The notes below the pieces were generated by a model. It saw only the letters and a program-made list of their open reading frames with translations. It was not told the origin of the DNA and did not search any database. DNA of 48,243 nucleotides, taken from sequence record PZ150741.1, one strand, 5' to 3'. The position numbers and the translations under genes were made by a program. Every line of letters begins with the position of its first letter. Position 1 is the stretch's first letter. This document shows positions 29,196-45,368 of this stretch, in pieces. Source of the DNA: a phage.

Positions 29196-29224
29196 ACTAA
29201 GGCCCCTTTCGGGGCCTTTTCTCT
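29196..29224. terminator. bidirectional terminator AAGGCCCC-TTTC-GGGGCCTT
   Basis: Third copy of the same hairpin; separates convergent late and replication blocks. Confidence 0.8.
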
Positions 29225-29872: not shown

Positions 29873-31293
29873 TTCTTACCTCGTCTCTTCATGTAATTAA
29901 GCAACTCTTCCTGTACCGATTTCTTCTCGTCTGTACGCGCGGCGACAACCTCGTCCAGCGTGTCTTTAGCCACGATGTGGTAGAGAAACACCGGGCGCTC
30001 GTGGCCCGCCTGTTTCTGGCGAACGGGGCCGATGCGCTCAACGACCTGCAAATAGTGCTCAAGGTTCCAGCCTTGCGAGATAAACGCCAGATGATGGCCG
30101 CCGTCCTGTAAATTCAAACCATGACCGGCTGACGCAGGGTGAACGCACAAAATCTCGATTTCACCACGGTTCCACGCTTCCATCTGCTTATTACCCTTAG
30201 CGCCTTTGGCAAACGCCTGCGCCTGTGGGAATCGCTTAAGGATGCGCTCAAGTTCGTGCTTGAACTGATAGGCCACCAGTAACGGTGCACCCTGTAGCTC
30301 CTCAACAATCGACTCCAGCGCATCCAGTTTCGTGTCGTGAACTTTCTCCCAGTCTTTGGTCGCTTCTCCGTCTGGCCCTGACACATACACGGCACCGGAC
30401 GCAATCTGCAGGCACTTCGACGTCTTCGCCGCAGCGTTAGCCGCTTCGACTTCCCCGCTCTCCAGTTCCGCGAATAACTTCTCCTCCATATCGATGTACG
30501 CCTGACGCGCTTTCTTCGGCAGGTCGATTTCAACCGGCACAATAATCGGCGCTTCGCAACCGAACCACTCTGCGGCGTCAATCGTAAGACTAATGTCCTT
30601 CATCTTCTGGTGAATTTCATTATCTGCGCCTGGGCGTGCATGATATTCACGCGCCATAGCTGACTTACCTTTCTGGACAGAGTTAAACCAGCGGTCGGTG
30701 AATGCCGTATATGAAGAACCGAGGCGCTCGCCTGCGTCAATAAACCAGTTCTGACCCCACAGGTCTTTGAGGCCGTTTGGTGATGGTGTGCCTGTCAGGT
30801 TAATGAACCGCTTAACCTTTCCGAACGCCACTTTGCTGAGCGCCTTAGCCCGCTTGCTACCCCCTGAACGGCTACGGAATGATTTTAGCTTCGTACTCTC
30901 GTCGGCGACGATAACCGTAAAAGGCCAGTCGTCTTTGCCGTAGTAGTCAATCAGCCACTCGATAACTTCGTAGTTAGTGCACACCACGTTAGCGTCTGAC
31001 TCCAGCGCCGCAATACGGCGTTTCTCCGAACCCGTTGCATCGACGACACGCAGGCACGGGAAACCCCACTTAGTTTGTTCTGCAGGCCACGTACCGGACG
31101 CAACACGTAACGGGGCGAGGATTAACACGCGGTCCTCTTCCGTAAGCTGACCGTTGCGGAACAGGCGGTTTAATGTCCACAGTACGCTGCCAGTCTTCCC
31201 GGCACCCATGCTCGCCCATATGTTGCAGCGATGGTGTTGCAACATGAACGAAGTCATGAGCTTCTGATATTCGCGCCTTTGAAACTTACCCAT
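29869..31293 (-). CDS. SNF2/DEAD-like superfamily 2 helicase
   Basis: Walker A MGAGKTGS, DExx box VADEST, C-terminal HPASAGHGLNLQ helicase motif VI-like. Confidence 0.8.
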   Translation of the reverse strand: MGKFQRREYQKLMTSFMLQHHRCNIWASMGAGKTGSVLWTLNRLFRNGQLTEEDRVLILAPLRVASGTWPAEQTKWGFPCLRVVDATGSEKRRIAALESDANVVCTNYEVIEWLIDYYGKDDWPFTVIVADESTKLKSFRSRSGGSKRAKALSKVAFGKVKRFINLTGTPSPNGLKDLWGQNWFIDAGERLGSSYTAFTDRWFNSVQKGKSAMAREYHARPGADNEIHQKMKDISLTIDAAEWFGCEAPIIVPVEIDLPKKARQAYIDMEEKLFAELESGEVEAANAAAKTSKCLQIASGAVYVSGPDGEATKDWEKVHDTKLDALESIVEELQGAPLLVAYQFKHELERILKRFPQAQAFAKGAKGNKQMEAWNRGEIEILCVHPASAGHGLNLQDGGHHLAFISQGWNLEHYLQVVERIGPVRQKQAGHERPVFLYHIVAKDTLDEVVAARTDEKKSVQEELLNYMKRRGKK

Positions 31294-32203
31294 TTACCAC
31301 CCCCATGAACGCCTTTATAAATTCAGCGGCTACTTGCGGGACGATGGCATTGCCGTAACCGCGCAATCGTCCCACTCTGGCGGGTATCCCATTAGCCAGC
31401 GGGAATGTGCCGGGTTCAACTGGCCGGAATTTCCCATCCCGGCAGCCGAGCCAGTCAGCATCTGACCAGAAGCCGTGATACGAATTGGTTGCGTTATCGC
31501 CGCCGCTTGTGCCACGTCTTGAGGTCCACCCTTCCTCTGAATCTCTGATAGCGCCCCCTCTAGTGTTCTCACGTTCTTTTCCCCGTCCGCACTGCGAGGA
31601 GTAGGCCAATTCGCTTTCCACACTTCCCGCCCCAACAGGCTGTTGGTAGGCACATTCAGGCATTCCTTCCCGTCTTTGTGGTCGCGCGTTGTTGGCGTCG
31701 GCCAATTCGTGCGCACCAAAGAAGAGTCGTTCTCTTTTGTGCGGAGCGCCGACGCTACAAGCTGGGAGTACGGCAAACCCGACGGCGTAGTCTTCTCCTT
31801 CCAGGTGAGCTTGTAAATCGCACATCCACGATTTTGCAATTGCTGGTGCAACCTGTTCCCCAAAGAGGACTGGAGGGCGGCACTCGCTGATGAGGTCGAG
31901 GAAAACTGGCGCGAGGTGTCTCGGGTCGAACTGCCCGAGTTGTTTTCCCGCCGCGCTAAACGGTTGGCAAGGCGGGCTTCCCGTCCAGAGAGGCGTATCT
32001 TCCGAAACTCCCGCAAGTCTGAGCGCGAGAGGCCAGCCGCCGATACCAGCGAAAAAATGACACTGGGTGAATCCGTCAAGGTCTTCTGGTCTAATTTCGG
32101 TAATGCTTCTTTCATCTACAACTCCAAAAGGTATATGACCCTGTTTTATTAGTTCGCGCAGCCACGCGGCTGCGCCTTTATCCCATTCGTTGTAATAGTT
32201 CAT
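31286..32203 (-). CDS. DNA (cytosine-5)-methyltransferase, compact
   Basis: Motif I FFAGIGGW, motif IV PPCQPFSAAG, ENV-like FGEQV, motif X YGNAIVPQVA. Confidence 0.75.
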   Translation of the reverse strand: MNYYNEWDKGAAAWLRELIKQGHIPFGVVDERSITEIRPEDLDGFTQCHFFAGIGGWPLALRLAGVSEDTPLWTGSPPCQPFSAAGKQLGQFDPRHLAPVFLDLISECRPPVLFGEQVAPAIAKSWMCDLQAHLEGEDYAVGFAVLPACSVGAPHKRERLFFGAHELADANNARPQRREGMPECAYQQPVGAGSVESELAYSSQCGRGKERENTRGGAIRDSEEGWTSRRGTSGGDNATNSYHGFWSDADWLGCRDGKFRPVEPGTFPLANGIPARVGRLRGYGNAIVPQVAAEFIKAFMGVVNG

Positions 32204-32391
32204 TTCGCCACCAGAACTAACTCTTTACGCCCGAATGCCGTAACGTTGCCCGTTACATCTTCGATAACCAGTTTACCGTTCGACTCGACGTACACCGTAT
32301 CAACGGCAACCGGCTGGCGGGTTTTAACGTTGAAAATCATGTCGCCTGGTACGATGTCACGTGCCGGTTTGCGGTCATATTCGTGTTTCAT
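32200..32391 (-). CDS. hypothetical small protein (63 aa)
   Basis: Track ORF, overlapping stop/start with methyltransferase gene. Confidence 0.45.
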   Translation of the reverse strand: MKHEYDRKPARDIVPGDMIFNVKTRQPVAVDTVYVESNGKLVIEDVTGNVTAFGRKELVLVAK

Positions 32392-32405
32392 TTCTCAATT
32401 CCTTA

Positions 32406-32699
32406 TCAGTATATTAATTCGTTTATTTTCTTATCCAGAGATTCTTTTGAGTAAAAGAAACCCATGTGTCTTCCTTTAAATACGAGCCTGTACACATTTT
32501 CCCCGTCTTCGGTAATAGAAAGGAAAACCTTACAACTAGTTCGGAACTCTCTTACTTTGTCACCAAACGCCAATTGCTCCCATTTTACTAAAGGAAATTC
32601 TTTTAACATATTAGTGTACAAGTCATTCGCGGTAGCCACTAAACCCGCATCTAACAGTACGGCGATTCTCTGTGCGTAATCTAAAAGGACCTTATTCAT
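32406..32699 (-). CDS. hypothetical protein (97 aa)
   Basis: Track ORF immediately downstream of near-consensus promoter. Confidence 0.5.
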   Translation of the reverse strand: MNKVLLDYAQRIAVLLDAGLVATANDLYTNMLKEFPLVKWEQLAFGDKVREFRTSCKVFLSITEDGENVYRLVFKGRHMGFFYSKESLDKKINELIY

Positions 32700-32729
32700 T
32701 TCTCAATTCCTTATATTGTTGGTGTACGG

Positions 32730-33014
32730 TTAACTATAATAGTTAGCTATTATGTCGTCAACCTGTTTAAACGAACCAACGACAAAAACATTCGCGCCAC
32801 GTTTACGCATCCGCTCATGTTCACGTAACTGGTGCGGGTCTGGCTTCGTGTTTTCATCTTTCTTAACCTCGACAAACCAGACGATGCCGTCGGGGAGGAT
32901 TACCAGCAGGTCGGGAGCGCCGGAGCGCCCCTCGTAGGAGAGTTTGCGAACGAGGCCCCCCAGGGCCTCGAATCGCTCTTTTGCGTATTTCTGTATTTTG
33001 CCTTCCGGGGTCAT
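32730..33014 (-). CDS. VRR-NUC domain nuclease (PD-(D/E)XK)
   Basis: Track ORF 32730-33029; motif PDLLVILPDG...FVEVKK; start probably ATG 33014. Confidence 0.6.
   Translation of the reverse strand: MTPEGKIQKYAKERFEALGGLVRKLSYEGRSGAPDLLVILPDGIVWFVEVKKDENTKPDPHQLREHERMRKRGANVFVVGSFKQVDDIIANYYS
32733..32761 (-). promoter_or_regulatory. sigma70-like promoter (TTGACG-17 bp-TATAGT)
   Basis: Reverse complement TTGACGACATAATAGCTAACTATTATAGT; member of leftward early promoter family. Confidence 0.65.
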
Positions 33015-33163
33015 GAGCGCAGAACCCAAGTAAGGAAAGCCCCTCCTAGAACGGCAACACCGACAAACTTAAAGAACAGGCCATAACAGAACATCGCAGC
33101 TATTCCAGCGCCGAGTAACAGTGCGAGCATGGCTACTATCGTCCAAAATACAAACATCGTCAT
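33011..33163 (-). CDS. possible 50-aa membrane peptide
   Basis: ATG at 33163; hydrophobic throughout; stop overlaps VRR-NUC start; below track cutoff. Confidence 0.25.
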   Translation of the reverse strand: MTMFVFWTIVAMLALLLGAGIAAMFCYGLFFKFVGVAVLGGAFLTWVLRS

Positions 33164-33245
33164 AATACACACCCCTCACGTTTTGTATGCTCAACCCCAC
33201 AGCGCGGGCAGATTCGGCAGTCTTCTTCATAAAACCAGTAAATTT

Positions 33246-33377
33246 TCATTCCAGCACCCACAGATAAATTGCGATGAACATGCCCAATATGGCAACCATC
33301 ATGCCGTATTGACCCTCGTGACAGTAGACACCGGCGGCGAATCCTGCCAGTACCGCGATAATCAGTTTACTTGGCAT
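33246..33377 (-). CDS. possible 43-aa membrane peptide
   Basis: ATG at 33377 overlaps 3' end of polymerase gene; hydrophobic. Confidence 0.2.
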   Translation of the reverse strand: MPSKLIIAVLAGFAAGVYCHEGQYGMMVAILGMFIAIYLWVLE

Positions 33378-35670
33378 AACGCTTCATCTCCGCACCTTCC
33401 GCTACAAGAGGGAACCCTTCGGCCCATTCCGGTAATTCGCACATCAACCGCCCAAGCTCTGCAACATTGTATTCCGGTGTATCTGGTGTCTCGCAGATAA
33501 TTTCGTCGTGTACGTGAAGCACAATCGGATAGCCGTTAGCTTCTACATTCAGCAGCGCATTAGCCAGCAAATCACGGCACAGCGCCTGAGTGCAGTTTTC
33601 CACCAGTTTACCGGAGTAGGTGTACTGGAAGCCCCACTGACGGGTTAACTGGTTTTCTCCCTGGTACTTGATACGCACGTTAGTAGACACCTTTCCGTCT
33701 TCGTCTGTCTCTTTCGACACGCTTAACCCGACTCCGGGGTATGACATAACACGACCCGACGGCAACGTCATGCGCAGCCACCAGCCAGCGACTTTGTTGC
33801 CGTTGGTGTCTGTCTCCACGTTGCGCGAAAACTTAACGCCGCGTGGCCCTGCGGTGAACTCTTTACCTGGATTGCGGATAGCTGCCATAGCCGCATCTTC
33901 AATATCTCGCCAGAACGCTACTGTTTCAGGGTGGGACTCACGCCACATGCGCTTGATAGCGTCGCAGGTACGCCACACTTTCTTATCAAGAATATACGAT
34001 GGCCGGTCATCCTTTTCACCCGGACGCGGTGGTCGCTTTGCCTCCTGAATACGCGCCCACTCATACCCACGTGCTGTAGCAGCCCAGATGTGGTCGGGGA
34101 AAGTCCCATCCATTGTTTTTGCCATATCAACAAGGTTTAAGCCGAGGTTTTTAGCAAACTGAACGAAAGCGCCAACGCCGCCTGCGTAGCCGAGGCCAAG
34201 TTCGCAGGCTTTACCAATCTGGCGCAGGTCACTACGGCTTTCGAGAATGTAATCAGGGTCCATGCCGAACATCTTACCCGCGGTTACGCAGTAAATATCC
34301 AATCCCGCACGGAACGTATCGAGCGCGGTTTCTTCTCCCGCCAGCCATGCCAAACCGCGACCTTCAACGTTAGAGTAATCAGCTACGACAAACTTATGCC
34401 CGGCTTCCGGTATGATGCAGCTACGCACCGTCGATGCCGTTAGCTTGGCTACATCGAAACGGCGGTGTGCTCGGCCTTTAAACAACAGGTCGATTCCGTA
34501 GGACAACGGGTGTGTTACTCTCCACCAGTCCTTCTCCGACATCCAGTCATAACGTACTTTCTTCTTTTTATTCTTAGGGTCGTCGTGATAATACCCGCGC
34601 GCCAGGTTCTGCGGCTGAAAGCCTTTACCCGCAAACCGTAACGTACGCTTAGCCCCGCCATACTGGATACAACCGCGACGGCGGTCGTCCGACGAACGGC
34701 CCAACAGAAGCGGGTTATATTTCGTTGACGCGGTGGACGCGGCCCCGAGGCGCATTTCGATAATCATACGAGCGTCGTCCGGTAAATCATCATCCGCAAG
34801 CAGGTCATTCAGAGTCGACTTCTGCGCATTGTGGATGCGGTGCGCTGGCGCAAGTTCACGTAGAATCGGCAGAAAGTCTTTACCAGTAAGCGAGCCGCCG
34901 TACTTACGCTGGGCTTCTTCCTGTAACTGCGCCTTGTGTTTCTCTACCGCTTCAATCGCTGCTTCTGCAAGCGCGACGTCAACCTTAAACCCGCGGTCGT
35001 TAATTAACTGGTCCAGCTCCAGTACACGGTCTTCGAACTCAGAGTTACCCCAACGCGGCAGCTTATGGAAGACTTCACGCATTGCGGTGATGTCGCTCAC
35101 AGCGTACTTGATGAATAGTGCCCACTCGTCAGGGTGCGTTTCGGCGGTGTAGCGTCTGATTTTGTAGTTCTTCGGTGTCGGTTTAGAGAAACGCTTAATC
35201 AGTGCCTTTCCGCGTTTATCTTTCGCGTTGTCTGCAGACACGCCCAGCACTTCACACAACGCATCGAGTGACCCAGGCAGCGCGTGACGAAACGCCCAAA
35301 TCATCGTATCAATGGTGTTGCTTACCGGAATATCAAAACCCCAGCAGTGCTTCATGATTAACCTATCGAACATTGAGCCGTTGTGCCACACCATCTTAAC
35401 GCGGCTGTTTGGCTTAACCAGGCGGCGCAAGGCGCGGTGTAAATCCCCCGGCATGTCGCTGCCGTCGGTGCAATCCCATATCTGTACCGGCTCGTCGTCA
35501 AAAGCATAAGTACAGATGAGCACTTCGGTGGTTGGGTGCTCCGCGTAAGCGTATGAGCCGACTTTCTTCAAATCGGCTTCGGAGAATGTTTCAAAGTCCA
35601 GGTATAAGTAGCTCATTTCTTTTTCCTTAAATCCAGTGCCTTTGTTTCGCTTAATCTTATTTTCATACAA
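33367..35670 (-). CDS. family A DNA polymerase with 3'-5' exonuclease domain
   Basis: Exo I YLDFET; motif A ADYSNVEGR; motif B RQIGKACELGLGYAGG; motif C HVHDE; alternative start ATG 35616. Confidence 0.9.
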   Translation of the reverse strand: MYENKIKRNKGTGFKEKEMSYLYLDFETFSEADLKKVGSYAYAEHPTTEVLICTYAFDDEPVQIWDCTDGSDMPGDLHRALRRLVKPNSRVKMVWHNGSMFDRLIMKHCWGFDIPVSNTIDTMIWAFRHALPGSLDALCEVLGVSADNAKDKRGKALIKRFSKPTPKNYKIRRYTAETHPDEWALFIKYAVSDITAMREVFHKLPRWGNSEFEDRVLELDQLINDRGFKVDVALAEAAIEAVEKHKAQLQEEAQRKYGGSLTGKDFLPILRELAPAHRIHNAQKSTLNDLLADDDLPDDARMIIEMRLGAASTASTKYNPLLLGRSSDDRRRGCIQYGGAKRTLRFAGKGFQPQNLARGYYHDDPKNKKKKVRYDWMSEKDWWRVTHPLSYGIDLLFKGRAHRRFDVAKLTASTVRSCIIPEAGHKFVVADYSNVEGRGLAWLAGEETALDTFRAGLDIYCVTAGKMFGMDPDYILESRSDLRQIGKACELGLGYAGGVGAFVQFAKNLGLNLVDMAKTMDGTFPDHIWAATARGYEWARIQEAKRPPRPGEKDDRPSYILDKKVWRTCDAIKRMWRESHPETVAFWRDIEDAAMAAIRNPGKEFTAGPRGVKFSRNVETDTNGNKVAGWWLRMTLPSGRVMSYPGVGLSVSKETDEDGKVSTNVRIKYQGENQLTRQWGFQYTYSGKLVENCTQALCRDLLANALLNVEANGYPIVLHVHDEIICETPDTPEYNVAELGRLMCELPEWAEGFPLVAEGAEMKRYAK

Positions 35671-35783
35671 TCACGGCAAATCCACACATGCCGGTATCCT
35701 GCCCGGTACTTATCCGCGTACCACGGAAGCGGTTTCATATAGCGATAAACGTGCTTACAGAAAAACATTATTTTCGACCCTTA

Positions 35784-35809
35784 GTAAAAAGGCCCAATGA
35801 AGGGCCTTA
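35784..35809 (-). terminator. attenuator-type hairpin between SSB-like and polymerase genes
   Basis: On minus strand AAGGCCC-TTCATT-GGGCCTT followed by TTTTTA. Confidence 0.55.
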
Positions 35810-35827
35810 GTTAAATTGATTCAGATA

Positions 35828-36457
35828 TTAACGGCGGCGACGTTCGCGGCGCGGTGCTTCATCTTCTTCGTCGTCTTCCAGGTCGTCAGTGCTCGCCACT
35901 ACACTGGAGCCTCCGAAGCGTTTACCTTCACCCATATACTTGATGCCGAGGATGGTAGCGCACAGGTTTTTCCAATCTTTGTGCCACCATAACTCTACAG
36001 ATACGTTTGCGACACATCCGCTATATACCTGCTCACCTTCTATTTCCTTCCCATCGATGTTGAAATCAGGCTCGGTTTGTTTTTCGCCTTTAGCCGATGT
36101 CATAATCACCGGTTGACGGTTGTTAGTAGCGCGGAAATACAGACCTTCTTCAAAATCATCAATCGGATTATCTCGCATCGCCAGGTCACGGACACAGCAT
36201 TTATCTGCATGGTGGTCTACGCCGTAGTTGGCCTTCATCCATTTCTCGGCAGCAGCTGCCCCGATTGCCTCCGTTACAACTTCCATCGCGGTATCGTAAA
36301 GCGCATCGATTTGAGGGTGGTCAGGCTGCATAAGAACCGTAACCTGATATTTACCCTTAATCAGTTTACCAGTTTTCTTGTCCTCAGAGTCGGCAGCACG
36401 TTCGAATACGTTAACCCAGGCAGTGTTTACTTTACGCAGATTCAGTTTAATACCCAT
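35828..36457 (-). CDS. ssDNA-binding-like protein (DUF2815-like) with acidic C-terminal tail
   Basis: 209 aa; C-terminus DDLEDDEEDE; co-located with DUF2800-like nuclease and polymerase. Confidence 0.5.
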   Translation of the reverse strand: MGIKLNLRKVNTAWVNVFERAADSEDKKTGKLIKGKYQVTVLMQPDHPQIDALYDTAMEVVTEAIGAAAAEKWMKANYGVDHHADKCCVRDLAMRDNPIDDFEEGLYFRATNNRQPVIMTSAKGEKQTEPDFNIDGKEIEGEQVYSGCVANVSVELWWHKDWKNLCATILGIKYMGEGKRFGGSSVVASTDDLEDDEEDEAPRRERRRR

Positions 36458-36523
36458 CTTGATTTCTCGCTTTTCAGTTTATATTTCAAAGTTTACTCCG
36501 GGAACTGCCCGGCCAGTGATTTA

Positions 36524-36552
36524 ACTATAATAGCTTACTATTCAGGTGTCAA
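36524..36552 (-). promoter_or_regulatory. sigma70 consensus promoter (TTGACA-17 bp-TATAGT)
   Basis: Reverse complement TTGACACCTGAATAGTAAGCTATTATAGT; palindrome CCGGGCAGTTCCCGG in the leader. Confidence 0.7.
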
Positions 36553-36556
36553 CACT

Positions 36557-37831
36557 TTATTCCAAATCTTCTTCACTAACCCGATTCCATTCAGGACGCT
36601 TGTCGTCTGCCGTCGCGACACATGGTGAACCGGGCTTACGCGTAATGAAGTCTTTTAGTTCTTCTTCCGGTATTACTTTAACGGCCTCGGTAGGCGTCAT
36701 GAGCACGTCTTTAGTCAGCTTGTAACCATATTTCTCGTATACCGCCTCGGCATCCTTCCACGCACGATTACCCGGGCGACCTTCAACCAGCTTGTACCCA
36801 GGAACTTTCTTACCGGAATGCAACGCGGTGGCCATCGCTTTCTCGACCTTGTCGATGTGCTGGCGCAACAACGGCAGCTTCTCATACTCGACTACGAGTT
36901 GCTCCGGCGTCAGTTCCAGCGCAAAGTCATCTTCAAGTTCTTCCGCCAGTACAGAATTAACGGTTCTTGTACGCGCGGCGCACTGTTCTGAGAACCGACA
37001 CCACTGACAACCATCGACAGACGGCTTGAAGTCCGTCGCTTTCAGGTTCTTTTTACCACGGAAATAAGCATCAAGCGCTAACAGCGCGCGTTTCTGTGCG
37101 AACTTAGCAAACAGTTCCAGACCTTCGACCGAGATGTCCCATTCCGACGCACCGCCCGCGTACGGCTGGAAGATGACCAGACGAACAACCGTGATGTTAT
37201 AACGTCTCTTGAGTCGGCGATAAACACCGAGAGCGTAAAGCATAAGCTGCTTGTTTTCTTTCGCTTCGACACGATGTCGTCCTGTTTTCAGGTCGCCAAT
37301 AATTAGCATGTGCTCGTCAGTGTTAGCCAGTTCCTGAACGGCAACAAGGTCAGCGGTCCCGAAGGTCTCTAAATCGTCTTCCTCACCTTCTTCACCATCA
37401 GCAGGTACTTTGTAGCCCGGATGCAACACCTCAGTAAGATTGACACGCATCTCGAGTTTGGCGTAAGTCGCTACATCGATAATCGGTTTGCAGTAGCCGG
37501 TGTACTTGCGCACCTGCTCAATCATGTCAGCCGTAATCAGTACCGCACCTTTCATCGGGCTGATTAGCGCCTTAATCTGGCCTTTACCCTCGTCCAGCAC
37601 GTAAGCACCAACTTCGCGCTCTAACGGCAACGCAGTGCCTTTGATGTACTGGTTAAGGTGCATCTCAGCTATGGTGTGCATTGCCGTGCCTAATACAGCG
37701 GCTTTACCGGACGTGTTAGGAATATCTTTTTCACAGGCCAGTGATGCGGCGCAGCTTAGCCACTTTTTAGCCCCCGATGGTGACAGTAAGGCGTGCACAT
37801 CATTATTTCCGCCGCGTTCTTTTAGAATCAT
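36557..37831 (-). CDS. Cas4-like PD-(D/E)XK exonuclease (DUF2800-like)
   Basis: N-terminal HALLSPSGAKKWLSC motif; C-terminal Cys cluster CQWCRFSEQC. Confidence 0.6.
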   Translation of the reverse strand: MILKERGGNNDVHALLSPSGAKKWLSCAASLACEKDIPNTSGKAAVLGTAMHTIAEMHLNQYIKGTALPLEREVGAYVLDEGKGQIKALISPMKGAVLITADMIEQVRKYTGYCKPIIDVATYAKLEMRVNLTEVLHPGYKVPADGEEGEEDDLETFGTADLVAVQELANTDEHMLIIGDLKTGRHRVEAKENKQLMLYALGVYRRLKRRYNITVVRLVIFQPYAGGASEWDISVEGLELFAKFAQKRALLALDAYFRGKKNLKATDFKPSVDGCQWCRFSEQCAARTRTVNSVLAEELEDDFALELTPEQLVVEYEKLPLLRQHIDKVEKAMATALHSGKKVPGYKLVEGRPGNRAWKDAEAVYEKYGYKLTKDVLMTPTEAVKVIPEEELKDFITRKPGSPCVATADDKRPEWNRVSEEDLE

Positions 37832-37977
37832 TCCGTAATCTCCACAATACGCGCATTAGTGAAACTGCGTTCGAAGCCGAATGTATAGAAGACATGCCGC
37901 GCTTCCTCAAGATGGGCGTAACGGCTATGTTCCTGGTCTTTACCGTCTATTTCTACGACTATCGCGTATCTTGTCAT
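37828..37977 (-). CDS. possible small protein (49 aa)
   Basis: ATGA-coupled at both ends to neighbouring genes; below track cutoff. Confidence 0.3.
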   Translation of the reverse strand: MTRYAIVVEIDGKDQEHSRYAHLEEARHVFYTFGFERSFTNARIVEITE

Positions 37978-38246
37978 ACCCTGTTCTCCCACTGGTCAAT
38001 TAAATGTCTGGTCTGGTGCTGGCAATGCATAGCCCACCCATACATCGACTCGAAGACATAAAAGTCGGGTTTGGTGAAAGTCGTGCGCTTAATCTGCGAC
38101 ACGTGGCGGCCTATATCTTTAGGCCGTGGTACTTTACCTAAGTACGCCATCTCTTCCATCTGGTGCGTGCCGGACGGCGCACGTAACAGCCATAGCGCCT
38201 CTGTGTTATCCCGCCTGTCTACGGCGCGGTAGAGTTGGTAAATCAT
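37974..38246 (-). CDS. hypothetical protein (90 aa)
   Basis: Track ORF. Confidence 0.45.
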   Translation of the reverse strand: MIYQLYRAVDRRDNTEALWLLRAPSGTHQMEEMAYLGKVPRPKDIGRHVSQIKRTTFTKPDFYVFESMYGWAMHCQHQTRHLIDQWENRV

Positions 38247-38578
38247 TTATCCACCTCATGCGTTCTCAAGAAGACAATCATAGCGGCGCGTAGAGGGTTT
38301 TTGCCGATAACGCATTCGTCTCCAACGTAAATCATACTGGTGGCGTCTCCGGTAATGCCGTCAATAACCGCATTATCCGGTAAAGCAATCCATTCTGAAT
38401 CGGTAGCTACAATCGAGATGTTGTTGCCGGTGATAACATGCCATGCGTCTTCCACGCGGTTGCAATAATCAACATCACCAGAAGCTAATTCCATCTGATG
38501 CCCACGAGAAACATCACCGTATAGCGCGCGGCTAACTCGTGCGTTAATCTCTATGTCTGTTAAATTTTCATATTTCAT
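38243..38578 (-). CDS. hypothetical protein (111 aa), DUF2591/NinX-like (tentative)
   Basis: Track ORF; weak recollected resemblance only. Confidence 0.4.
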   Translation of the reverse strand: MKYENLTDIEINARVSRALYGDVSRGHQMELASGDVDYCNRVEDAWHVITGNNISIVATDSEWIALPDNAVIDGITGDATSMIYVGDECVIGKNPLRAAMIVFLRTHEVDK

Positions 38579-38589
38579 ATTTCCGACCC

Positions 38590-38614
38590 TCAGTTAAAGC
38601 GGCCCGAAGGCCGC
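38590..38614 (-). terminator. hairpin GCGGCC-TTCG-GGCCGC plus T-rich tail (minus strand)
   Basis: Between the acidic protein gene and downstream operon genes. Confidence 0.5.
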
Positions 38615-38621
38615 GAGATAA

Positions 38622-39083
38622 TTATTCTTCTTCGAAATACTTGTTCTTGATTGCCGTCAGGCGTTCCAGGTATTCAGCCAGGTCTTCATCTTTAATCGCA
38701 GCAATCTTCATCTTCTTACCGGTGAACTCTTCCAGCAGCTCGTCAGAATCATCACACGCGGCATCGCTCGGACCTTCATTAATCGCATCGTCGATAGCCT
38801 GAATCTGGTCGCGCAGAGACTGGTAATCTACTTCTTCTTTCTCTTCTTCCGGCTCTGGTGTAGGTTCCTCTACTTTAGCTTTACGCGGCTTGCGTTTTGG
38901 CTTCTCTTCTTCTGCTGGTTTAGTGTCAACTATGTCTTCACCTTCGGCCGGGATTTCTTTCGTTGCAACAGTAGGCTCGATTGTTGCAGTTTCCGCAACG
39001 ACAACCTGTTTTGCACTGTTCGCGGCAATCAGTTCATGTGCAACTACGAAACGTTCCAGTAACACCAAGAATTTCTCTAACAT
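38622..39083 (-). CDS. highly acidic Glu/Asp-rich protein, first gene of a leftward early operon
   Basis: 153 aa with roughly 45 Asp+Glu versus about 20 Lys+Arg; immediately downstream of consensus promoter. Confidence 0.55.
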   Translation of the reverse strand: MLEKFLVLLERFVVAHELIAANSAKQVVVAETATIEPTVATKEIPAEGEDIVDTKPAEEEKPKRKPRKAKVEEPTPEPEEEKEEVDYQSLRDQIQAIDDAINEGPSDAACDDSDELLEEFTGKKMKIAAIKDEDLAEYLERLTAIKNKYFEEE

Positions 39084-39114
39084 TTGTTTCTCTCCTCTCG
39101 TTTGGTATGGGCTA

Positions 39115-39143
39115 ACTATAATAGCGAACTATTCACATGTCAA
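39115..39143 (-). promoter_or_regulatory. sigma70 consensus promoter (TTGACA-17 bp-TATAGT)
   Basis: Reverse complement TTGACATGTGAATAGTTCGCTATTATAGT. Confidence 0.7.
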
Positions 39144-39165
39144 TGGGCTTTTCTAAAATAATTAA

Positions 39166-39176
39166 TATGGTACTAT
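39166..39176 (+). promoter_or_regulatory. possible extended -10 promoter (TGGTACTAT) for HTH gene
   Basis: TG-n-TACTAT about 30 nt upstream of ATG 39208; no clear -35. Confidence 0.3.
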
Positions 39177-39207
39177 TCACATATCAACTGACTAAGGAGT
39201 AACTGAC

Positions 39208-39423
39208 ATGCAACCATCTGAACTAGGCATCCGTGTAGAACAACGCCGCAAAGAACTCGGCATCTCCCAGCGCCGTCTGGCGGTCCTGGCCGGGGTTTCC
39301 CAGGGCGCAATTAACCAACTTGCACTTGGAGTAACTCAGGACGTCCGCCCGGCGACGCTGTTTAAACTGGCGGAAGTTCTGCAAGTAGACGCTAAGTGGC
39401 TGGCGTTCGGTGAAGGGGCTTAA
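39208..39423 (+). CDS. XRE/Cro-type HTH transcriptional regulator
   Basis: LGISQRRLAVLAGVSQGAINQL HTH signature; AAGGAG SD. Confidence 0.7.
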   Translation: MQPSELGIRVEQRRKELGISQRRLAVLAGVSQGAINQLALGVTQDVRPATLFKLAEVLQVDAKWLAFGEGA

Positions 39424-39440
39424 CGCCCCTTTCTTTTTAC

Positions 39441-41681
39441 CTATTCCAAATCTTCCTCTGTAACTATCAGCATTTCATTCGGTTCGTATATTGTCTTCGG
39501 TCTTAATCTGTCACCCATCTTTTCCGGTATCCGGTATGTACCGGGAATAACCTCGCCGTTAACATCACACCCTAGCATCAACTCACCGTCCTTCAGCATC
39601 TTCTCAAGATGGTGGTTGGTTATGGCGTGGTCGCCGGAGTTCGCTACTATCTGCCGTTGGGTAAAACCTCGTCCGGTGTCGTCGGACTGTTGCAGGTCTT
39701 CCAGCGCGGCGAGTATTGATTCCTTACGCCCTTCATCCTTCCCACGTTTTACGGCATTCTTTACGTTTTCCTTACCTTCCTTTGTCAGCCCTTCTTCGCG
39801 CTCTTTCTCCTCGTCAGTTTTGAACGGCTCGAAACCCCACGGCATCAACACAAGCGCCTTGTGCGGCTCAGGCAGGTCCAGGTTTACGATTGTGCCGTAC
39901 TCCTCGGTGCTACCCAGGAACTCAACCGCACGGTACTCTTTTGGCGGCGGGGCTTCACGGAACTGTACGGACTCCAGAACCATACCGACAGTTTTCTGTT
40001 GAGGCCCGTGCTTAAATTTCGAGTGGTATACGTTTATCTGACGGTCGGTTGCACGTTCGATTGTCAGTTCCACGTCGACGCCCGCATACAGCGCCCCACT
40101 GCCACGGGCTTTCTTTCCGCCTTTCGGCGTATGGTGAACAACGCCCACCGCGGCTTTAGTCGCATCGCGTACTTCTTTCAGGATGGCGATAACTTTACCC
40201 ATGCCGATTGCCGTCGATGAACTGTTCTCGTCGAACTTATCAATTGTCAGGGCCAGCGTCTGGTTAAGGGTGTCGAACGCGACCATTCCGATAGGTTCAT
40301 CCCCGGCAGTTTCGCGCATGAGCTTAATCAGGCTTTTCAGTTTGCCGACTTCGCCCATATCGATGACATGTACATAATCTTTACCTTCCGCGCCATATTT
40401 AGCCGCGAGTGCATCGATACGTGTACGTGTGGCTGCACCACCCTCACCATCGATATAGAAATGGTGACAACGCTGGGTATCCGCCCCCGCAAACCGGTAA
40501 CCAGCGGCGCTGAGATACATCATACCCAGCGTATAGAACGATTTGTACGTGCCAGATTCCCCGACGATATCCCAGATACAATCCGACGGCATGTACCCTT
40601 CGACGACGAAATCAGCCTTTACCGGTTCCGGTAATTCGTCCTCCTCTGAGTCCTCGTCGTCTTCCAGGTCGTCCAGGCTGCATGAGACGGATTCACGCGC
40701 ACCCCAACCGATGGCCTCTGCCACTTCACTGAATGGCAGCCCGGTCGCATCGCACGCGTACTTCCACACCTCTTTCGGCGACATGCCTTCGGTTGCCGTA
40801 ATGTCGGTGTCGTGAATCATGGTTACGTTCGGAGCTTCATATCCCTCGCGCGGGAAGCACAGCAGGAAGTCGTCCGGGCGCGGTGTCGGGTCGCTGTAGT
40901 TTTCTGCGTGTTCTGGCGTAGCTGGCATTTTCAGTCCGCGGGGTGTCATGACACCGCCGTACTCGAACGCCAGTGCTTCGAACGCATCCGTAAACGCGGT
41001 GCGCAGTTCTTCCGGTATCTGGTAATCCGATGCGCTGCTAACGTCAACGGCGGGGATGCCTTCCAGTAACTCGTCCGGGTCAATCAGGTCGTTGCGGCGC
41101 GACCAGATAACCTGAGAGCCAACCGGCGGCAGGTACATCGGCTGCGACAGAGTAAAACCGCTGCGGTCGGCGCCCATGCCTTTGAAGAAGTGTTCCAGCA
41201 GCCCATGACGAACACGGGTGATGTCGCCACCCTCAACCGGACGGCCCAGCGGCATGACGACGCGAAAGCGCGGGGACTCATCGGTATGGGATGCCGTGGT
41301 GTAGAGGCACATAGCCCGGCGGCTGCGCTTAACCAGGCGCACCGCTTCCTGGTACTCTTCCGGTGTTGCGCTGTCGAAGTCCAGATACGCCAGCGACGAT
41401 TTGCTTACAGAAGCGTCGCAGCGGTATAAAAAGCCTTTGCGCGCTTGCTTAAAGTCACCAGTTTCCGGGTCTTTTACGGTGCTGTGTGTAGAGTCACACG
41501 CGGCGGTGATATAGCCGGGCGCAGTCTTAGGGTTAACCCCATCGCGAACGGCATCGAGCGGCTGAATTAACTCTTTCAGGTCGTCCAGTGTTGCCGTGTG
41601 TGTGGTTCTGACGTTTATATCCTTTTTCTCTGCTCTCGCGTTGCGACGTGACCACGAGTAGGATAAAATTGCATCGGACAT
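39441..41681 (-). CDS. primase-helicase (N-terminal primase-like region plus RecA/DnaB-like NTPase)
   Basis: Walker A GESGTYKS and downstream acidic Walker B-like VAFD; 746 aa, large N-terminal domain; placement in replication block. Confidence 0.55.
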   Translation of the reverse strand: MSDAILSYSWSRRNARAEKKDINVRTTHTATLDDLKELIQPLDAVRDGVNPKTAPGYITAACDSTHSTVKDPETGDFKQARKGFLYRCDASVSKSSLAYLDFDSATPEEYQEAVRLVKRSRRAMCLYTTASHTDESPRFRVVMPLGRPVEGGDITRVRHGLLEHFFKGMGADRSGFTLSQPMYLPPVGSQVIWSRRNDLIDPDELLEGIPAVDVSSASDYQIPEELRTAFTDAFEALAFEYGGVMTPRGLKMPATPEHAENYSDPTPRPDDFLLCFPREGYEAPNVTMIHDTDITATEGMSPKEVWKYACDATGLPFSEVAEAIGWGARESVSCSLDDLEDDEDSEEDELPEPVKADFVVEGYMPSDCIWDIVGESGTYKSFYTLGMMYLSAAGYRFAGADTQRCHHFYIDGEGGAATRTRIDALAAKYGAEGKDYVHVIDMGEVGKLKSLIKLMRETAGDEPIGMVAFDTLNQTLALTIDKFDENSSSTAIGMGKVIAILKEVRDATKAAVGVVHHTPKGGKKARGSGALYAGVDVELTIERATDRQINVYHSKFKHGPQQKTVGMVLESVQFREAPPPKEYRAVEFLGSTEEYGTIVNLDLPEPHKALVLMPWGFEPFKTDEEKEREEGLTKEGKENVKNAVKRGKDEGRKESILAALEDLQQSDDTGRGFTQRQIVANSGDHAITNHHLEKMLKDGELMLGCDVNGEVIPGTYRIPEKMGDRLRPKTIYEPNEMLIVTEEDLE

Positions 41682-41739
41682 GTTGTATTTCCTTCAGCAA
41701 GTAATTTGGCCTCGGCGTTCACCGCGTCGGGGCTTTCTT

Positions 41740-41973
41740 TTATTCCAGGTCTTCTAAAGTAGCGGTCATTCCGCGAACTTCGGCAACGGCGCTATATTTC
41801 CCGCCAACGTTTTTCACGACACCGGATTTAACCAGAACACGTAACGACCCTTCAATAATGGCGGAACTATAGTACTTAAAATAACTACGGCGCAAGTCGA
41901 TAACACTGCACGACCCTTTTTTACGTGTTAACGAAACGACTGCTGTGAATACTCGTGACTGGAACTCGGTCAT
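41740..41973 (-). CDS. hypothetical protein (77 aa)
   Basis: Track ORF; ATGA-coupled to upstream HTH gene. Confidence 0.45.
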   Translation of the reverse strand: MTEFQSRVFTAVVSLTRKKGSCSVIDLRRSYFKYYSSAIIEGSLRVLVKSGVVKNVGGKYSAVAEVRGMTATLEDLE

Positions 41974-42140
41974 TTCACGTTCTCCTTAATCCACGCTTCC
42001 ACTTTCTCCGGGTCGAACGTACCTGGCTGCCGGCGGCCCATAATGCGAATACAACAATCCGGGAACTTTCCACTCTTTAACCAGTTATTCAGCGTGCGAC
42101 GGGTAACCCCGATACGCTCAGCTACCTCATTCTGCGTCAT
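41970..42140 (-). CDS. AlpA/excisionase-like HTH DNA-binding protein (56 aa)
   Basis: MTQNEVAERIGVTRRTLNNWLKSGKFP resembles AlpA-family HTH; first gene after leftward promoter; below track cutoff. Confidence 0.55.
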   Translation of the reverse strand: MTQNEVAERIGVTRRTLNNWLKSGKFPDCCIRIMGRRQPGTFDPEKVEAWIKENVK

Positions 42141-42172
42141 TCTCAAACCCTCATCATCAGTTAACGAAACAA

Positions 42173-42201
42173 AGTATACATTGCGAATAATGGGAAATCA
42201 A
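42173..42201 (-). promoter_or_regulatory. sigma70-like promoter (TTGATT-17 bp-TATACT) for leftward operon
   Basis: Reverse complement gives TTGATT, 17-bp spacer, TATACT about 30 nt upstream of ATG 42140. Confidence 0.5.
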
Positions 42202-42475
42202 ACATAATCGCACCTATTGACATTATGAAAATCTTCGTTTAAGGTGCTTCTATATCTTAGTTACTTTGATTCCTGTTCACCTTGTAAATCCGCTTAAACC
42301 GTGCGTTAAGCAAAGGGTTAAGCGCAAGTTTACTGAACATGAGAATTATTGTAACTTTCCTTCCTAAGTATCTCAGGTTGCCCTGGGCGAGCTATATTCT
42401 CATCGGCAGCATATCTCTTAAGTATCTGATTTTCTTAAAGTGCCGTAGATTCGCAACCGTAAAAATGTAACCCTT

Positions 42476-42506
42476 ACCGGGCAGGCTTAAGGCCTGCCCT
42501 TTAGTT
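42476..42506 (+). terminator. terminator hairpin GGGCAGGC-TTAAG-GCCTGCCC plus TTTAGTT inside control region
   Basis: 8-bp perfect stem plus T-rich tail; no annotated upstream + strand gene. Confidence 0.5.
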
Positions 42507-42571
42507 ACCAAGTAATAAGAATAAAGGCACAACCTTCCCTAAAGAATCACAACGGCAACGTAACTATTCTC

Positions 42572-42600
42572 TTGCACACCCCAACATAATAGGATACTAT
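42572..42600 (+). promoter_or_regulatory. sigma70-like promoter (TTGCAC-17 bp-TACTAT)
   Basis: TTGCACACCCCAACATAATAGGATACTAT; followed by AACGAGACAGAGGAG leader and ATG 42635. Confidence 0.65.
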
Positions 42601-42634
42601 TCACTTATCGAAACGAGACAGAGGAGTGAGGGTT

Positions 42635-42820
42635 ATGTTTAAGAAGGGTCAGTTGGTGAAAACGAAAGATTACGGTTATTACGGTGTTATCGAACAAATT
42701 TCAAATGATGTTATCGGGATGTACTACATCTATATACCTGACGGGCGTTTCGGTAAGTGGTGCTTTGGCGATGAGATAACACTAATCGGCAACAATTTTA
42801 AATTCAAAGGGGCGAAGTGA
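42635..42820 (+). CDS. hypothetical small protein (61 aa)
   Basis: Track ORF 42626-42820; ATG at 42635 after GAGGAGTGAGGG. Confidence 0.5.
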   Translation: MFKKGQLVKTKDYGYYGVIEQISNDVIGMYYIYIPDGRFGKWCFGDEITLIGNNFKFKGAK

Positions 42821-43059
42821 TGCAAATCATAATTACAGATAACACAGTTTCCTACGAAAAAGGTGACGACGATACTTTGGAAAGCATAGGTGTAAATATA
42901 GGTGACGTTTTCGAGGTGCTTGGTCCTGTATCAGGCGGATGGTGGATTAAGGTTGGGCGCTACAAAGTTCCGGTAAGTAAAGCCGAAGCGGAAATACACA
43001 CAACGGCATCGAATCACGATGCTCGTGCCGACGACTCTGAGGGAGGTTGCCGTGAATAA
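42820..43059 (+). CDS. hypothetical protein (79 aa)
   Basis: Track ORF 42817-43059; ATG 42820 overlaps upstream stop. Confidence 0.45.
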   Translation: MQIIITDNTVSYEKGDDDTLESIGVNIGDVFEVLGPVSGGWWIKVGRYKVPVSKAEAEIHTTASNHDARADDSEGGCRE

Positions 43060-43119
43060 TTACCCGTTTATTTTAATCATCAGCGCCGTTTATGCGGTGC
43101 ACGCGTTGTGGGGGTTGTT

Positions 43120-43263
43120 ATGAGAGAAGCATTTGAACGGTGGGCCGTCGTCGAGGGGCTGCCGGTTAACAAGGGTTCAAAGAAAGAGTACCTGAACGTC
43201 AAGACGCGTCTCGCGTGGCGGGCGTGGAAAGCCGGGGTGTTGTCTGTGATGAATAAGGGGTGA
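43120..43263 (+). CDS. hypothetical small protein (47 aa)
   Basis: ATG at 43120; Trp/Arg-rich; below track cutoff. Confidence 0.3.
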   Translation: MREAFERWAVVEGLPVNKGSKKEYLNVKTRLAWRAWKAGVLSVMNKG

Positions 43264-43266
43264 GAT

Positions 43267-43464
43267 ATGAGTGAATGGATTAAGTGCAGTGAGCGGATGC
43301 CAGGTGATTTTGAAGATGTTCTGGTTACTGATGGGGTCTATGTAGAAGTTATGTGGTTAGATTGTGATGGGTATTGGGATAGTCGGGTAGAGTCGTGGGC
43401 GGTTACGGTGGACCGGGAAGATATAACACACTGGATGCCGTTACCAGAGCCGCCGGAAGTGTGA
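43267..43464 (+). CDS. hypothetical protein, DUF551-like (tentative)
   Basis: Track ORF; C-terminal WMPLPEPP resembles small phage DUF551 proteins. Confidence 0.45.
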   Translation: MSEWIKCSERMPGDFEDVLVTDGVYVEVMWLDCDGYWDSRVESWAVTVDREDITHWMPLPEPPEV

Positions 43465-43495
43465 TGTTCAATAGTTTGGGATTTTACTGAGTGAC

Positions 43496-43530
43496 TTACG
43501 CTGCTACACAGCAGCGTATCATTTTTCTCA
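43496..43530 (+). terminator. rho-independent terminator ACGCTGC-TACACA-GCAGCGT plus T-runs
   Basis: 7-bp stem followed by ATCATTTTTCTCATTTTT; immediately upstream of repeat/promoter. Confidence 0.7.
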
Positions 43531-43611
43531 TTTTTGTTCTATTTCACGAAACGCAACAATTGAAGCTACTATTGCAGGAGATGCAACAATACAAACACCA
43601 ATAAAATTTAC

Positions 43612-43640
43612 TTGCACACTAAGATAGAATATGCTACTAT
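43612..43640 (+). promoter_or_regulatory. sigma70-like promoter, copy of 36-64
   Basis: Duplicate within repeat. Confidence 0.6.
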
Positions 43641-43670
43641 TCATTTACACAAACGAGAGGAGAGGCAGAT

Positions 43671-43820
43671 ATGGTTACTTTGATGGTTATGGAGTTCGAA
43701 AACAGCACCGCAACTTACCGCGAGATGACTATGGCGCAGGCGTATCACCTGGCCTCAAACGGCAACTTCTACAAGGCCCAAATCATCAACGAGTTCGGGG
43801 TAATTGACTATGAATTTTAA
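43671..43820 (+). CDS. hypothetical small protein (copy of 95-244)
   Basis: Duplicate within repeat. Confidence 0.45.
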   Translation: MVTLMVMEFENSTATYREMTMAQAYHLASNGNFYKAQIINEFGVIDYEF

Positions 43821-44082
43821 CAGTTACACCGTTACCGTTGATTTTGAGGGGCTGGAGCTGCCCCTCCCTAACAACTACCGGTATATCTCACGCGACTGTA
43901 ACGGGTTTATTCAGGGGTGGCGGAACAAACCGACAGATACTGAGTTCGGGATGTCTGGCGGGGAAGAGTTGCCGATCACTTTCGGACATCAGAGTAGCAA
44001 CGAAGAACTTAAAACCGTGATTCGTAAGTATCGCCGCCGCGGTAACACCGGACTTATAGCAATAACAGGCGCGGTTGAATAA
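43810..44082 (+). CDS. hypothetical protein (copy of 234-506)
   Basis: Duplicate within repeat. Confidence 0.5.
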   Translation: MNFNSYTVTVDFEGLELPLPNNYRYISRDCNGFIQGWRNKPTDTEFGMSGGEELPITFGHQSSNEELKTVIRKYRRRGNTGLIAITGAVE

Positions 44083-44101
44083 ACGAGAGGAGAGACAGAA
44101 G

Positions 44102-44320
44102 ATGTTCCTGGAATGCAAATCCTATGAAGGCTATTGGGCGCTGACCAAAAACGACCTGTACCACCTCAAAGAAGACGGCGACGAGAGCCGCTGCTACATA
44201 ATAGACGACAATGGCACTGAACTTGATGTCTATTACACCGGGTATGGTCGATGGGCGTTATTGGCGGACGATGACTTTGTGTTCGAAGAATATAACGGAG
44301 AGGAGCCAGAAGATGAGTAA
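44102..44320 (+). CDS. hypothetical protein (copy of 526-744)
   Basis: Duplicate within repeat. Confidence 0.5.
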   Translation: MFLECKSYEGYWALTKNDLYHLKEDGDESRCYIIDDNGTELDVYYTGYGRWALLADDDFVFEEYNGEEPEDE

Positions 44321-44915
44321 CAAAAACGAAGTATTAGAATACCTGATTGACCAGCTACGGCAGCAGCTACCGGTAGTAGATGTAATGGGTGAAATAAAAC
44401 GGTGGAGCATAGACCGTAGTATTGCTGGCCGAGGTAACTATACCGAAGAGGAAAACGCCGTAATCGATGCTTACATCGGCCTGGAGCACAACCCATACAA
44501 GCAACAGTGCGAAGACCTGGCACATGAGGTGCAGTCACTCAAGAATCAGTTACGCGACGCTTCGGCGCTGGTGGCTGAGTTACAGAGCGACAACATTAAG
44601 AAATCTGAGCACATATCGCACCTGTCGGAACTGGTGGACGAGTTGATGGGGACTATAACGTTAATGAACGGGGACGTTGAGGCTTACAAAGTTCTACGCA
44701 AAGGTGGGTACGTGCCTGAGCAATCCGGTTGCCGTAAGGACGATACCCAGGAATGCGAGCATGAGTGGCGATGTGTGGTAGTTTTTGGGAATAGACTTGG
44801 GACCCCGTATTGCCGTAAATGTGGTGCGGCTAAACCTGAAGAATGCAAGCACGAATGGCAATTTTACGGAGTCGGGTTTCCTTGTATGTGCCTTAAATGC
44901 GGGTTAAAGAAATGA
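44314..44915 (+). CDS. zinc-ribbon-like protein (copy of 738-1339)
   Basis: Duplicate within repeat. Confidence 0.5.
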
Positions 44916-45115
44916 CCAGCATCCTTTTTATCTGGGTACTGTCTGCAGGTCAGATGCATCTGGCGGCATCAGAAACGTTTTACTCGATGGAGGCGTGCCG
45001 GTCAGCGGCACGCGCCGCAGAGAACGCACACTTCCTGTTTCAGGGCGACAAGCCCAACGATTCAGAGGTACGCGCTATCTGCTCACCTAAGCGACTTGGT
45101 AAACAGGAGAAGTGA
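44912..45115 (+). CDS. hypothetical small protein (copy of 1336-1539)
   Basis: Duplicate within repeat. Confidence 0.4.
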   Translation: MTSILFIWVLSAGQMHLAASETFYSMEACRSAARAAENAHFLFQGDKPNDSEVRAICSPKRLGKQEK

Positions 45116-45117
45116 TT

Positions 45118-45366
45118 ATGGTTAAATTATACGCAGAGCGCGATTTAGAAATGCTCGACATGACTAACAATTACTATTCAAGACATGTGATGGCTATGAC
45201 GGAGGAAGGATTGAACAGTAAATCATCTATCGCTGCTGAGTTGGCGTACCGTGACTGGATTATTGATGAACAGCAAAAAGAGTTACAGAAATACAAAGAC
45301 CAGTTCCCGGATTACGTCGAGTGCGCGAACTGTGGGTTGGTCACACATGTGGAAGGGGTAGAGTGA
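45118..45366 (+). CDS. hypothetical protein (copy of 1542-1790)
   Basis: Duplicate within repeat. Confidence 0.45.
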   Translation: MVKLYAERDLEMLDMTNNYYSRHVMAMTEEGLNSKSSIAAELAYRDWIIDEQQKELQKYKDQFPDYVECANCGLVTHVEGVE

Positions 45367-45368
45367 TT

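Follow-up and report, generated by a model that had tools for sequence, protein, structure and literature searches.

The promoter at 36524 to 36552 on the minus strand of the phage sequence PZ150741.1 is one of several, dispersed along the same DNA, that have bases in common beyond those required for recognition of the -35 and -10 hexamers. The question raised by this locus is what the shared bases are kept for. The whole stretch of DNA analyzed (the window, 48,243 bp) corresponds to a Kagunavirus-type siphophage of the Guernseyvirinae, ∼90% identical to the Escherichia coli phages Bas73, NTEC3, and SCS92. Guernseyvirinae (Kagunavirus and Jerseyvirus) are often isolated for therapy and food safety, and more than 500 of their genomes were present in the collection searched; a literature search found no transcriptome, transcription start site, binding, or footprint study of the group.

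Positions 1 to 4670 of the window are repeated at 43577 to 48243 with 99.94% identity, leaving a unique genome of 43,576 bp. The window is therefore a wrapped or terminally redundant assembly. Two differences separate the end copies, namely, a T-run at 3505 (T8/T7) and, at 2985-2986, a 2-bp indel that alters the endolysin frame in one of them; these point to sequencing error or population heterogeneity rather than to a true long terminal repeat. Because the ends repeat, the sites at 36 and 3535 each appear twice in the window, with duplicates at 43612 to 43640 and 47108 to 47136.

Promoter sites and a shared 14-bp dyad

The first-pass annotation had listed eight sites with a 17-bp spacer, and all of them were found where it had placed them and on the strands it had given. 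Its description of these sites as near-consensus sigma70 promoters held for P36524 and P39115 (11 of 12 consensus bases) and for P32733 and P3535 (10 of 12), but not for P36, P10864, P19711, and P42572, which match at 7 of 12 positions. The three promoters that we group as class B are all on the minus strand. P36524 (TTGACA-N17-TATAGT) heads the genes for a Gp2.5-like SSB and the DNA polymerase; P39115 (39115 to 39143; TTGACA-N17-TATAGT) heads those for a 153-aa ORF, NinX, and an exonuclease; and P32733 (32733 to 32761; TTGACG-N17-TATAGT) heads those for a 97-aa ORF, a methyltransferase, and a helicase. Each of them contains a palindrome of the form AATAG-N4-CTATT (AATAGCTTACTATT at 36529-36542, and its counterparts at 39120-39133 and 32738-32751) centered at -18.5, so placed that the -10 hexamer TATAGT begins at the last T of CTATT. 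P32733 and its dyad lie within the last ∼10 codons of the VRR-NUC nuclease gene (32730-33029), where coding and regulatory roles overlap. The 66-nt 5' untranslated region of the SSB gene (36455-36518, minus strand) contains a hairpin, CCGGG-CAGTT-CCCGG, that is also found in Salmonella phage Jersey and whose stability is not above that of shuffled sequences (z = 0.22).

In class A the element is flipped with respect to class B. This class includes P42572 (42572 to 42600, plus strand; TTGCAC-N17-TACTAT), which heads small early ORFs; P10864 (10864 to 10892, minus strand; TTGCGC-N17-TACTAT), which heads a lone leftward 74-aa ORF in the structural region; and P19711 (19711 to 19739, minus strand; TTGCGC-N17-TACTAT), which heads the superinfection-immunity (Imm) and SbcD-like exonuclease genes. 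Their dyads (42588-42601, 10863-10876, and 19710-19723, respectively) are centered at -12.5, and the -10 hexamer is made of two N4 bases plus CTAT. The fourth member, P36 (36 to 64, plus strand; TTGCAC-N17-TACTAT), heads small ORFs, holins, and the endolysin, and its dyad (AATATGCTACTATT at 52-65) has one mismatch in the window and is perfect in 27 of 30 relatives. The class A hexamers, TTGCRC and TACTAT, have 3 of 6 and 4 of 6 consensus bases, respectively, with TTG and TAnnAT kept. Upstream of the dyad, class A promoters also share a nonpalindromic stretch, TTGCRCACCCCAAYAT (10877-10892, 19724-19739, and 42572-42587), which Kagunavirus keeps and Jersey and Tsm2 lack; common ancestry or a second factor might account for it. 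P3535 (3535 to 3563, plus strand; TTGACT-N17-TATATT), which heads small ORFs and the terminase and portal genes, constitutes class C. Its dyad, AATAGTTGACTATT at 3530-3543, has the form AATAG-TTGA-CTATT, contains the -35, and is centered at -33.5; in most relatives it carries one mismatch (ACTAG).

The first-pass annotation had missed the two end duplicates and two further sites. P39164 (39148 to 39176, plus strand), the promoter of the Cro-like gene described below, has no -35 and an extended -10, TGG-TACTAT, with a one-mismatch dyad (AATATGGTACTATT at 39164-39177) centered at -12.5; P39115 lies back-to-back with it. P10954 (10954 to 10987, plus strand; TTGACT-N17-TGn-TAAGCT) is a doubtful member of the family whose one-mismatch dyad, AATAGTTGACTTTT at 10954-10967, lies over the -35 and is degenerate in Jersey. 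Both of these promoters have a TGn extended -10, and the spacing is 17 bp in all ten sites. A further doubtful one-mismatch dyad, TATAGTATGCTATT at 9042-9055 (plus strand), directly follows a terminator (9022-9037) and overlaps the annotated start of the head morphogenesis gene; it contains the ATG annotated as that start in relatives, and may mark either an internal restart promoter or a miscalled start.

At nine of the ten sites, the distance from the end of the -10 to the start codon of the co-oriented ORF is 15 to 66 nt; at P10954 it is 224 nt, with a terminator in between. The leaders that follow most promoters of the family (for instance, 65-90, 39084-39110, and 42601-42625) share ACACCAACAA or (C)GAAACGAGA(G/C)AG(A)GGAG before the start codons, which suggests a common leader and ribosome-binding design. 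The description of these promoters as early holds only in part, in that the units headed include replication, lysis, packaging, and single-gene (moron-like) units besides the small-gene ones.

The spacer sequence shared beyond the needs of the -35 and -10, to which the first-pass annotation had drawn attention, is real and far above chance, and it is better described as the 14-bp dyad AATAG-N4-CTATT. Seven perfect copies were found in the unique genome (starting at 3530, 10863, 19710, 32738, 36529, 39120, and 42588), where 0.02 to 0.04 would be expected; the full window contains eight, against 0.02 expected, a number attained in none of 100 shuffles. Seven of the eight sites noted earlier carry a perfect dyad, and that at 36 has one mismatch. 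One-mismatch copies start at 52 (P36), 39164, 10954, and 9042; two others, at 2297 and 25906, have no promoter context and look like chance matches. When all 5-Nx-5 palindromes were counted, the dyad ranked first in the window, Bas73, fBC-Eco01, and Jersey, with 7, 7, 7, and 4 perfect copies, respectively, compared to an expectation of ∼0.04. It was also the top palindrome in a 19-kb viral contig (L038; 5 copies). The runners-up were the stems of a conserved terminator hairpin.

Only the family-specific motif is enriched, not generic sigma70-like sequence: a generic sigma70 scan gave 12 matches in positions 1 to 20000, compared to 17.8 expected from dinucleotide shuffles, and 20 in positions 30000 to 48243, compared to 17.0. 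Two candidate promoters contain no dyad. One, for the tail operon, has a TGn-TAGAAT element (TG-C-TAGAAT at 19745-19754, plus strand) back-to-back with P19711, and the other, for the AlpA/primase operon, lies at 42201-42173 on the minus strand. GTGCTARNNT was considered as a late-promoter motif and rejected; its only two matches, the 19745-19754 site and 10978, are both upstream of late operons, with ∼2.7 expected by chance. Two alternative readings, CATAAT as the -10 of class A and a promoter running rightward on the strand opposite to class B, were likewise discarded on inspection by eye, as neither has a usable -35.

The repeat itself is already in the literature. For fBC-Eco01, a PHIRE consensus, tgAATAGTa-ccTATTat-T, was credited to a phage RNA polymerase (PMC9825357), and seven PHIRE promoters were listed, uninterpreted, for VB_EcoS-Golestan (PMC7203180). 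The dyad and the PHIRE promoters of these two phages are the same element at the same genome positions; six of the seven fBC-Eco01 "phage promoters" are this dyad. That the elements serve a phage-encoded RNA polymerase agrees with the label they carry both in that study (PMC9825357) and in the fBC-Eco01 GenBank record. Nevertheless, this reading is almost certainly wrong: the annotations of Bas73, Jersey, and fBC-Eco01 include no gene for an RNA polymerase or a sigma factor, and none emerged from Pfam and PHROGs screens of ∼23 small or uncharacterized proteins of the window. All the ORFs of at least ∼750 aa match, by position and size, the tape-measure, tail, tailspike, DNA polymerase, and helicase-primase genes of relatives, and both the register and the orientation of the element vary with respect to the gene that follows. 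In the Jersey GenBank record, some of the dyad sites are labeled as sigma70 promoters. Thus, the published RNA polymerase reading is contradicted by gene content, and what is new with respect to the PHIRE papers is the dyad symmetry, the multiple registers, the selective conservation, and the link to a Cro-like gene.

Registers and conservation of the half-sites

The simplest account of the repeat would involve no separate factor. Promoter cassettes would have been duplicated or homogenized and kept for the host RNA polymerase, and AT-rich sequence that resembles a -10 on both strands would yield the dyad as a by-product. The CTATT half-site supplies -10 bases in every class, so that part of its conservation is promoter function, and the stretch TTGCRCACCCCAAYAT of class A looks like common ancestry, in line with such cassettes. 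Against them stands the placement of the dyad, which recurs in either orientation and at three or four registers, one of them covering the -35. Besides the -12.5, -18.5, and -33.5 positions of classes A, B, and C, a fourth register, -15.5, occurs in Jersey (16957) and Tsm2 (21072). With so many registers and both orientations, contacts of RNA polymerase alone do not explain the dyad, and the arrangement fits a site for a symmetric dimer. The dyad has, moreover, been kept across phage genera whose flanking sequences have diverged.

Conservation was studied on orthologous sites taken from 38 viral-contig loci plus three whole genomes (Bas73, Jersey, and fBC-Eco01). In this compilation, which took in only sites with no more than two dyad mismatches, the half-sites varied by 0 to 1.4% and the flanks by 2 to 27%. 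The N4 core varied by 6 to 17% at four of the seven compiled sites, and by 0 to 1% at P3535, where N4 is the -35, and at P39164. The comparison was repeated for the control region of the Cro-like gene with 36 unique sequences anchored on the cro start codon alone. There, the dyad half-sites varied by 0 and 0.6%, the -35 hexamer by 0%, and the -10 hexamer by 0.5%, whereas variability reached 11.8% in the N4 core and 21.5% in the 4 bp that separate the dyad from the -35. Constraint on the spacer half-site is therefore as tight as on the -35 and -10 hexamers, while the bases next to it drift. For class B, this means that AATAG is invariant within a spacer whose neighboring bases vary by 12 to 21%, which the cassette account leaves unexplained; sigma70 makes, to our knowledge, no base-specific contacts in the spacer. 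Overall, we consider it unlikely that the dyad is a mere by-product of promoter duplication. A role at the RNA level was also discarded, as the predicted transcripts would start downstream of the dyad and the genome gave no Rfam match.

The genome thus carries about ten host-type promoters of mixed strength, all embedding one 14-bp dyad that is under selection of its own. The first-pass annotation had suggested that the conserved spacer could be an operator for a phage regulator, an idea that gains from the registers and orientations and from the near-invariant half-sites in ∼36 relatives. We consider it probable that the dyad is a protein-binding operator.

Candidate binders of the dyad

Two phage proteins had been put forward as regulators, and the evidence favors the first of them, a 71-aa Cro-like protein encoded at 39208-39423 on the plus strand (Pfam HTH_3, E = 1.2e-12). 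Its gene is a single-gene unit with its own promoter that ends at a terminator (39412-39432) and lies on the opposite strand between two leftward operons; the 125-bp divergent control region upstream contains two dyads. Among solved structures, the closest in sequence is phage 434 Cro, also of 71 aa (top PDB match with phmmer, E = 4.9e-7). An AlphaFold2 model (pLDDT 78.5) has five helices, and a Foldseek search with it returned 434 Cro first (2cro; TM 0.77/0.83), followed by the DNA-binding domains of the 434 and P22 repressors. The 434 Cro and repressor proteins bind 14-bp dyads in which the outer bases are conserved and the center is variable and uncontacted, as seen in the complexes 3cro (with OR1) and 2or1. 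Likeness to 434 Cro in both sequence and fold, presence in every related genome examined, and a site at its own promoter are what recommend this protein. At that promoter, the mismatch in the P39164 dyad (AATAT for AATAG) is kept in all 38 loci, and the TG of the extended -10 results from it. In Jersey, the promoter of the Cro-like gene contains only a half-site, and in Tsm2 it contains none.

A homologue of the Cro-like gene was present in every Guernseyvirinae genome examined, and tblastn detected homologues in 568 phage records, with identities of 93 to 100% in Kagunavirus, ∼51% in Jerseyvirus, and 39 to 42% in outliers. In Bas73 (PQ850603.1), the gene is present at 34027-34239 (94% identical) and unannotated, a 31-codon ORF on the opposite strand just upstream being annotated instead. 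The dyad is found where the recognition helix begins with VSQ, that is, in Kagunavirus (VSQGAINQL), Jersey (VSQSLITHL), and Tsm2 (VSQGMLNHL), all three having the same dyad; it is absent in SenTO17, VLCpiS11a, and Scapp, in which the helix has diverged. The covariation of helix and operator is suggestive but not clean. Jersey, with a protein of only 51% identity and a different helix, uses the same dyad, whereas SenTO17 lacks it in spite of a fairly similar helix, and the pattern tracks phylogeny, so that shared ancestry confounds the link. The dyad-less SenTO17, VLCpiS11a, and Scapp yielded no replacement palindrome. Nor did a large protein search provide an independent lineage with the same recognition helix, as every match was a relative with 77% identity or more, encoded on a contig of Kagunavirus size; a scan of viral contigs gave 37 close relatives plus one 40% match with no dyad. 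Two other phages were set aside as comparisons: Klebsiella phage RCIP0098 is a lambdoid temperate phage and irrelevant here, and Serratia phage eta, which forms unstable lysogens, has only structural genes in common with this group and different repeats.

The second protein put forward, a 56-aa AlpA-like HTH_17 protein (41970-42140, minus strand), is disfavored. It is conserved in Kagunavirus and Jersey (75 to 100% identity) and is also found in L038. The genome has many terminators inside its operons, and AlpA-type antiterminators recognize an element between the -35 and the -10 (PMC9371919). This protein, or another one not recognized as DNA binding, might act either as a repressor or as an antiterminator of the Q/AlpA type loaded at the promoter. 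The AlpA protein of Pseudomonas aeruginosa, however, exceeds 140 aa, needs an N-terminal ring segment, and acts as a monomer on an asymmetric 6-bp element (PMC9371919). That of the window is a bare 56-aa HTH_17 domain, and the site is a symmetric 14-mer. Furthermore, Serratia phage Tsm2 has no AlpA-like gene (as judged by tblastn and a Pfam screen of its early proteins) and yet keeps the dyad in both class A and class B contexts. Binding of the dyad by this or some other phage protein thus seems distinctly unlikely.

A transcription factor of the hosts (E. coli, Salmonella, and Serratia), through which the phage would sense host state, would explain why the dyad is conserved in phages from three enterobacterial genera despite the divergence of the phage HTH proteins to 42 to 51% identity. 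We know of no enterobacterial regulator with an AATAG-N4-CTATT consensus; OxyR recognizes ATAG-N7-CTAT, whose spacing differs from that of the dyad. SenTO17, in addition, infects Salmonella and has lost the dyad, and a host factor is, in our view, very improbable. With these alternatives weighed, the Cro-like protein is the putative binder of the dyad, an assignment that we hold with somewhat more confidence than doubt.

A predicted Cro-type circuit

In the explanation that we propose, promoters of the host sigma70 type in a virulent Kagunavirus incorporate a 14-bp operator with two-fold symmetry. A dimer of the 71-aa 434-Cro-like protein would sit on the two half-sites, whose centers are 9 bp apart, as on the example TGAATAGTAAGCTATTAT. 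The predicted operators cover the -10 in class A, the spacer plus the first -10 base in class B, and the -35 in class C; given this overlap, their occupancy would block the host RNA polymerase. As the Cro-like protein accumulated, the small-gene, replication, lysis/packaging, and moron units would be turned down, and the weaker, one-mismatch site at P39164 would provide negative autoregulation. Taken as a whole, with binding, the identity of the binder, and repression all inferred, this repressor-operator explanation has in our judgment a slightly better than even chance of being correct.

The proposed regulator resembles 434 Cro in length (71 aa), sequence, and five-helix fold, and retains Gln at position 1 of the recognition helix. 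The sites likewise resemble the 434 operators in their length (14 bp), their two-fold symmetry, the conservation of the outer bases around a variable center, and their overlap with core promoter elements. They differ in the half-site, which is AATAG here and ACAA in 434, and in being single and dispersed, whereas those of 434 (OR1-3 and OL1-3) form tandem triplets. Unlike 434, moreover, the phage described here is virulent, with no cI partner, integrase, or bistable switch, and binding is predicted; the annotated genes of the relatives Bas73, Jersey, and fBC-Eco01 include neither cI nor an integrase, nor any other lysogeny gene. The Cro turn-down of lambda during lytic growth offers a second parallel, as here too a small early HTH protein made from a promoter under its own control would lower transcription from early promoters by occupying operators over the -10 and -35. 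Compared to lambda, the proposed regulon adds replication, lysis/packaging, and moron promoters, with operators at three or four registers.

A short repressor site repeated many times along a genome is also known from the cluster A mycobacteriophages, whose stoperators are the sites of L5 gp71. Stoperators are asymmetric 13-mers of temperate phages that are oriented with transcription, lie mostly off promoters, and halt elongation. The dyads, in contrast, are symmetric, are located on promoters, and occur in both orientations.

Apart from the dyads, the window contains conserved terminators. A near-identical bidirectional hairpin, AAGGCCCCTTTCGGGGCCTT, occurs at 10587-10612, 17898-17923, and 29197-29222, with variants at 9022-9037 and 35787-35812. 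It marks each boundary between the rightward structural operons and the leftward units and ranks second in palindrome enrichment in every relative examined. P10954 heads a leader with a terminator, followed by the capsid-to-tail-tube genes: in this region (10959-11200, plus strand), a strong terminator hairpin (11168-11187) closes the leader of ∼190 nt immediately upstream of the Rz, scaffold, and capsid genes. The folding of the leader is better than that of all 200 shuffles (z = -2.68), and it has no Rfam match. It is conserved in Bas73 and fBC-Eco01 and recognizable in Jersey, with compensatory changes in the terminator stem. Its layout resembles that of lambda PR'-tR', which by analogy hints at antitermination control of the late genes; no Q-like protein was identified for it.

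A further step is to regard the ∼10 operators as graded by half-site match, N4 composition, and register, which would set the order and depth of shut-off and make the system a genome-wide Cro regulon rather than a local switch. We put this forward tentatively, as a possibility that we would not bet on. If it holds true, a single 71-aa Cro-like protein would program most units of a virulent siphophage in which no RNA polymerase, sigma factor, or cI was detected, and the tail and primase operons, whose candidate promoters have no site, would escape shut-off. No general concept of phage regulation is changed by these results. The promoters, operators, and repressor would form a compact and portable set, usable in phage engineering. 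For the Guernseyvirinae, the probable Cro-type operator reading brings a corrected annotation of the repeat and a testable model of temporal control in a virulent phage that would depend on the host RNA polymerase only.
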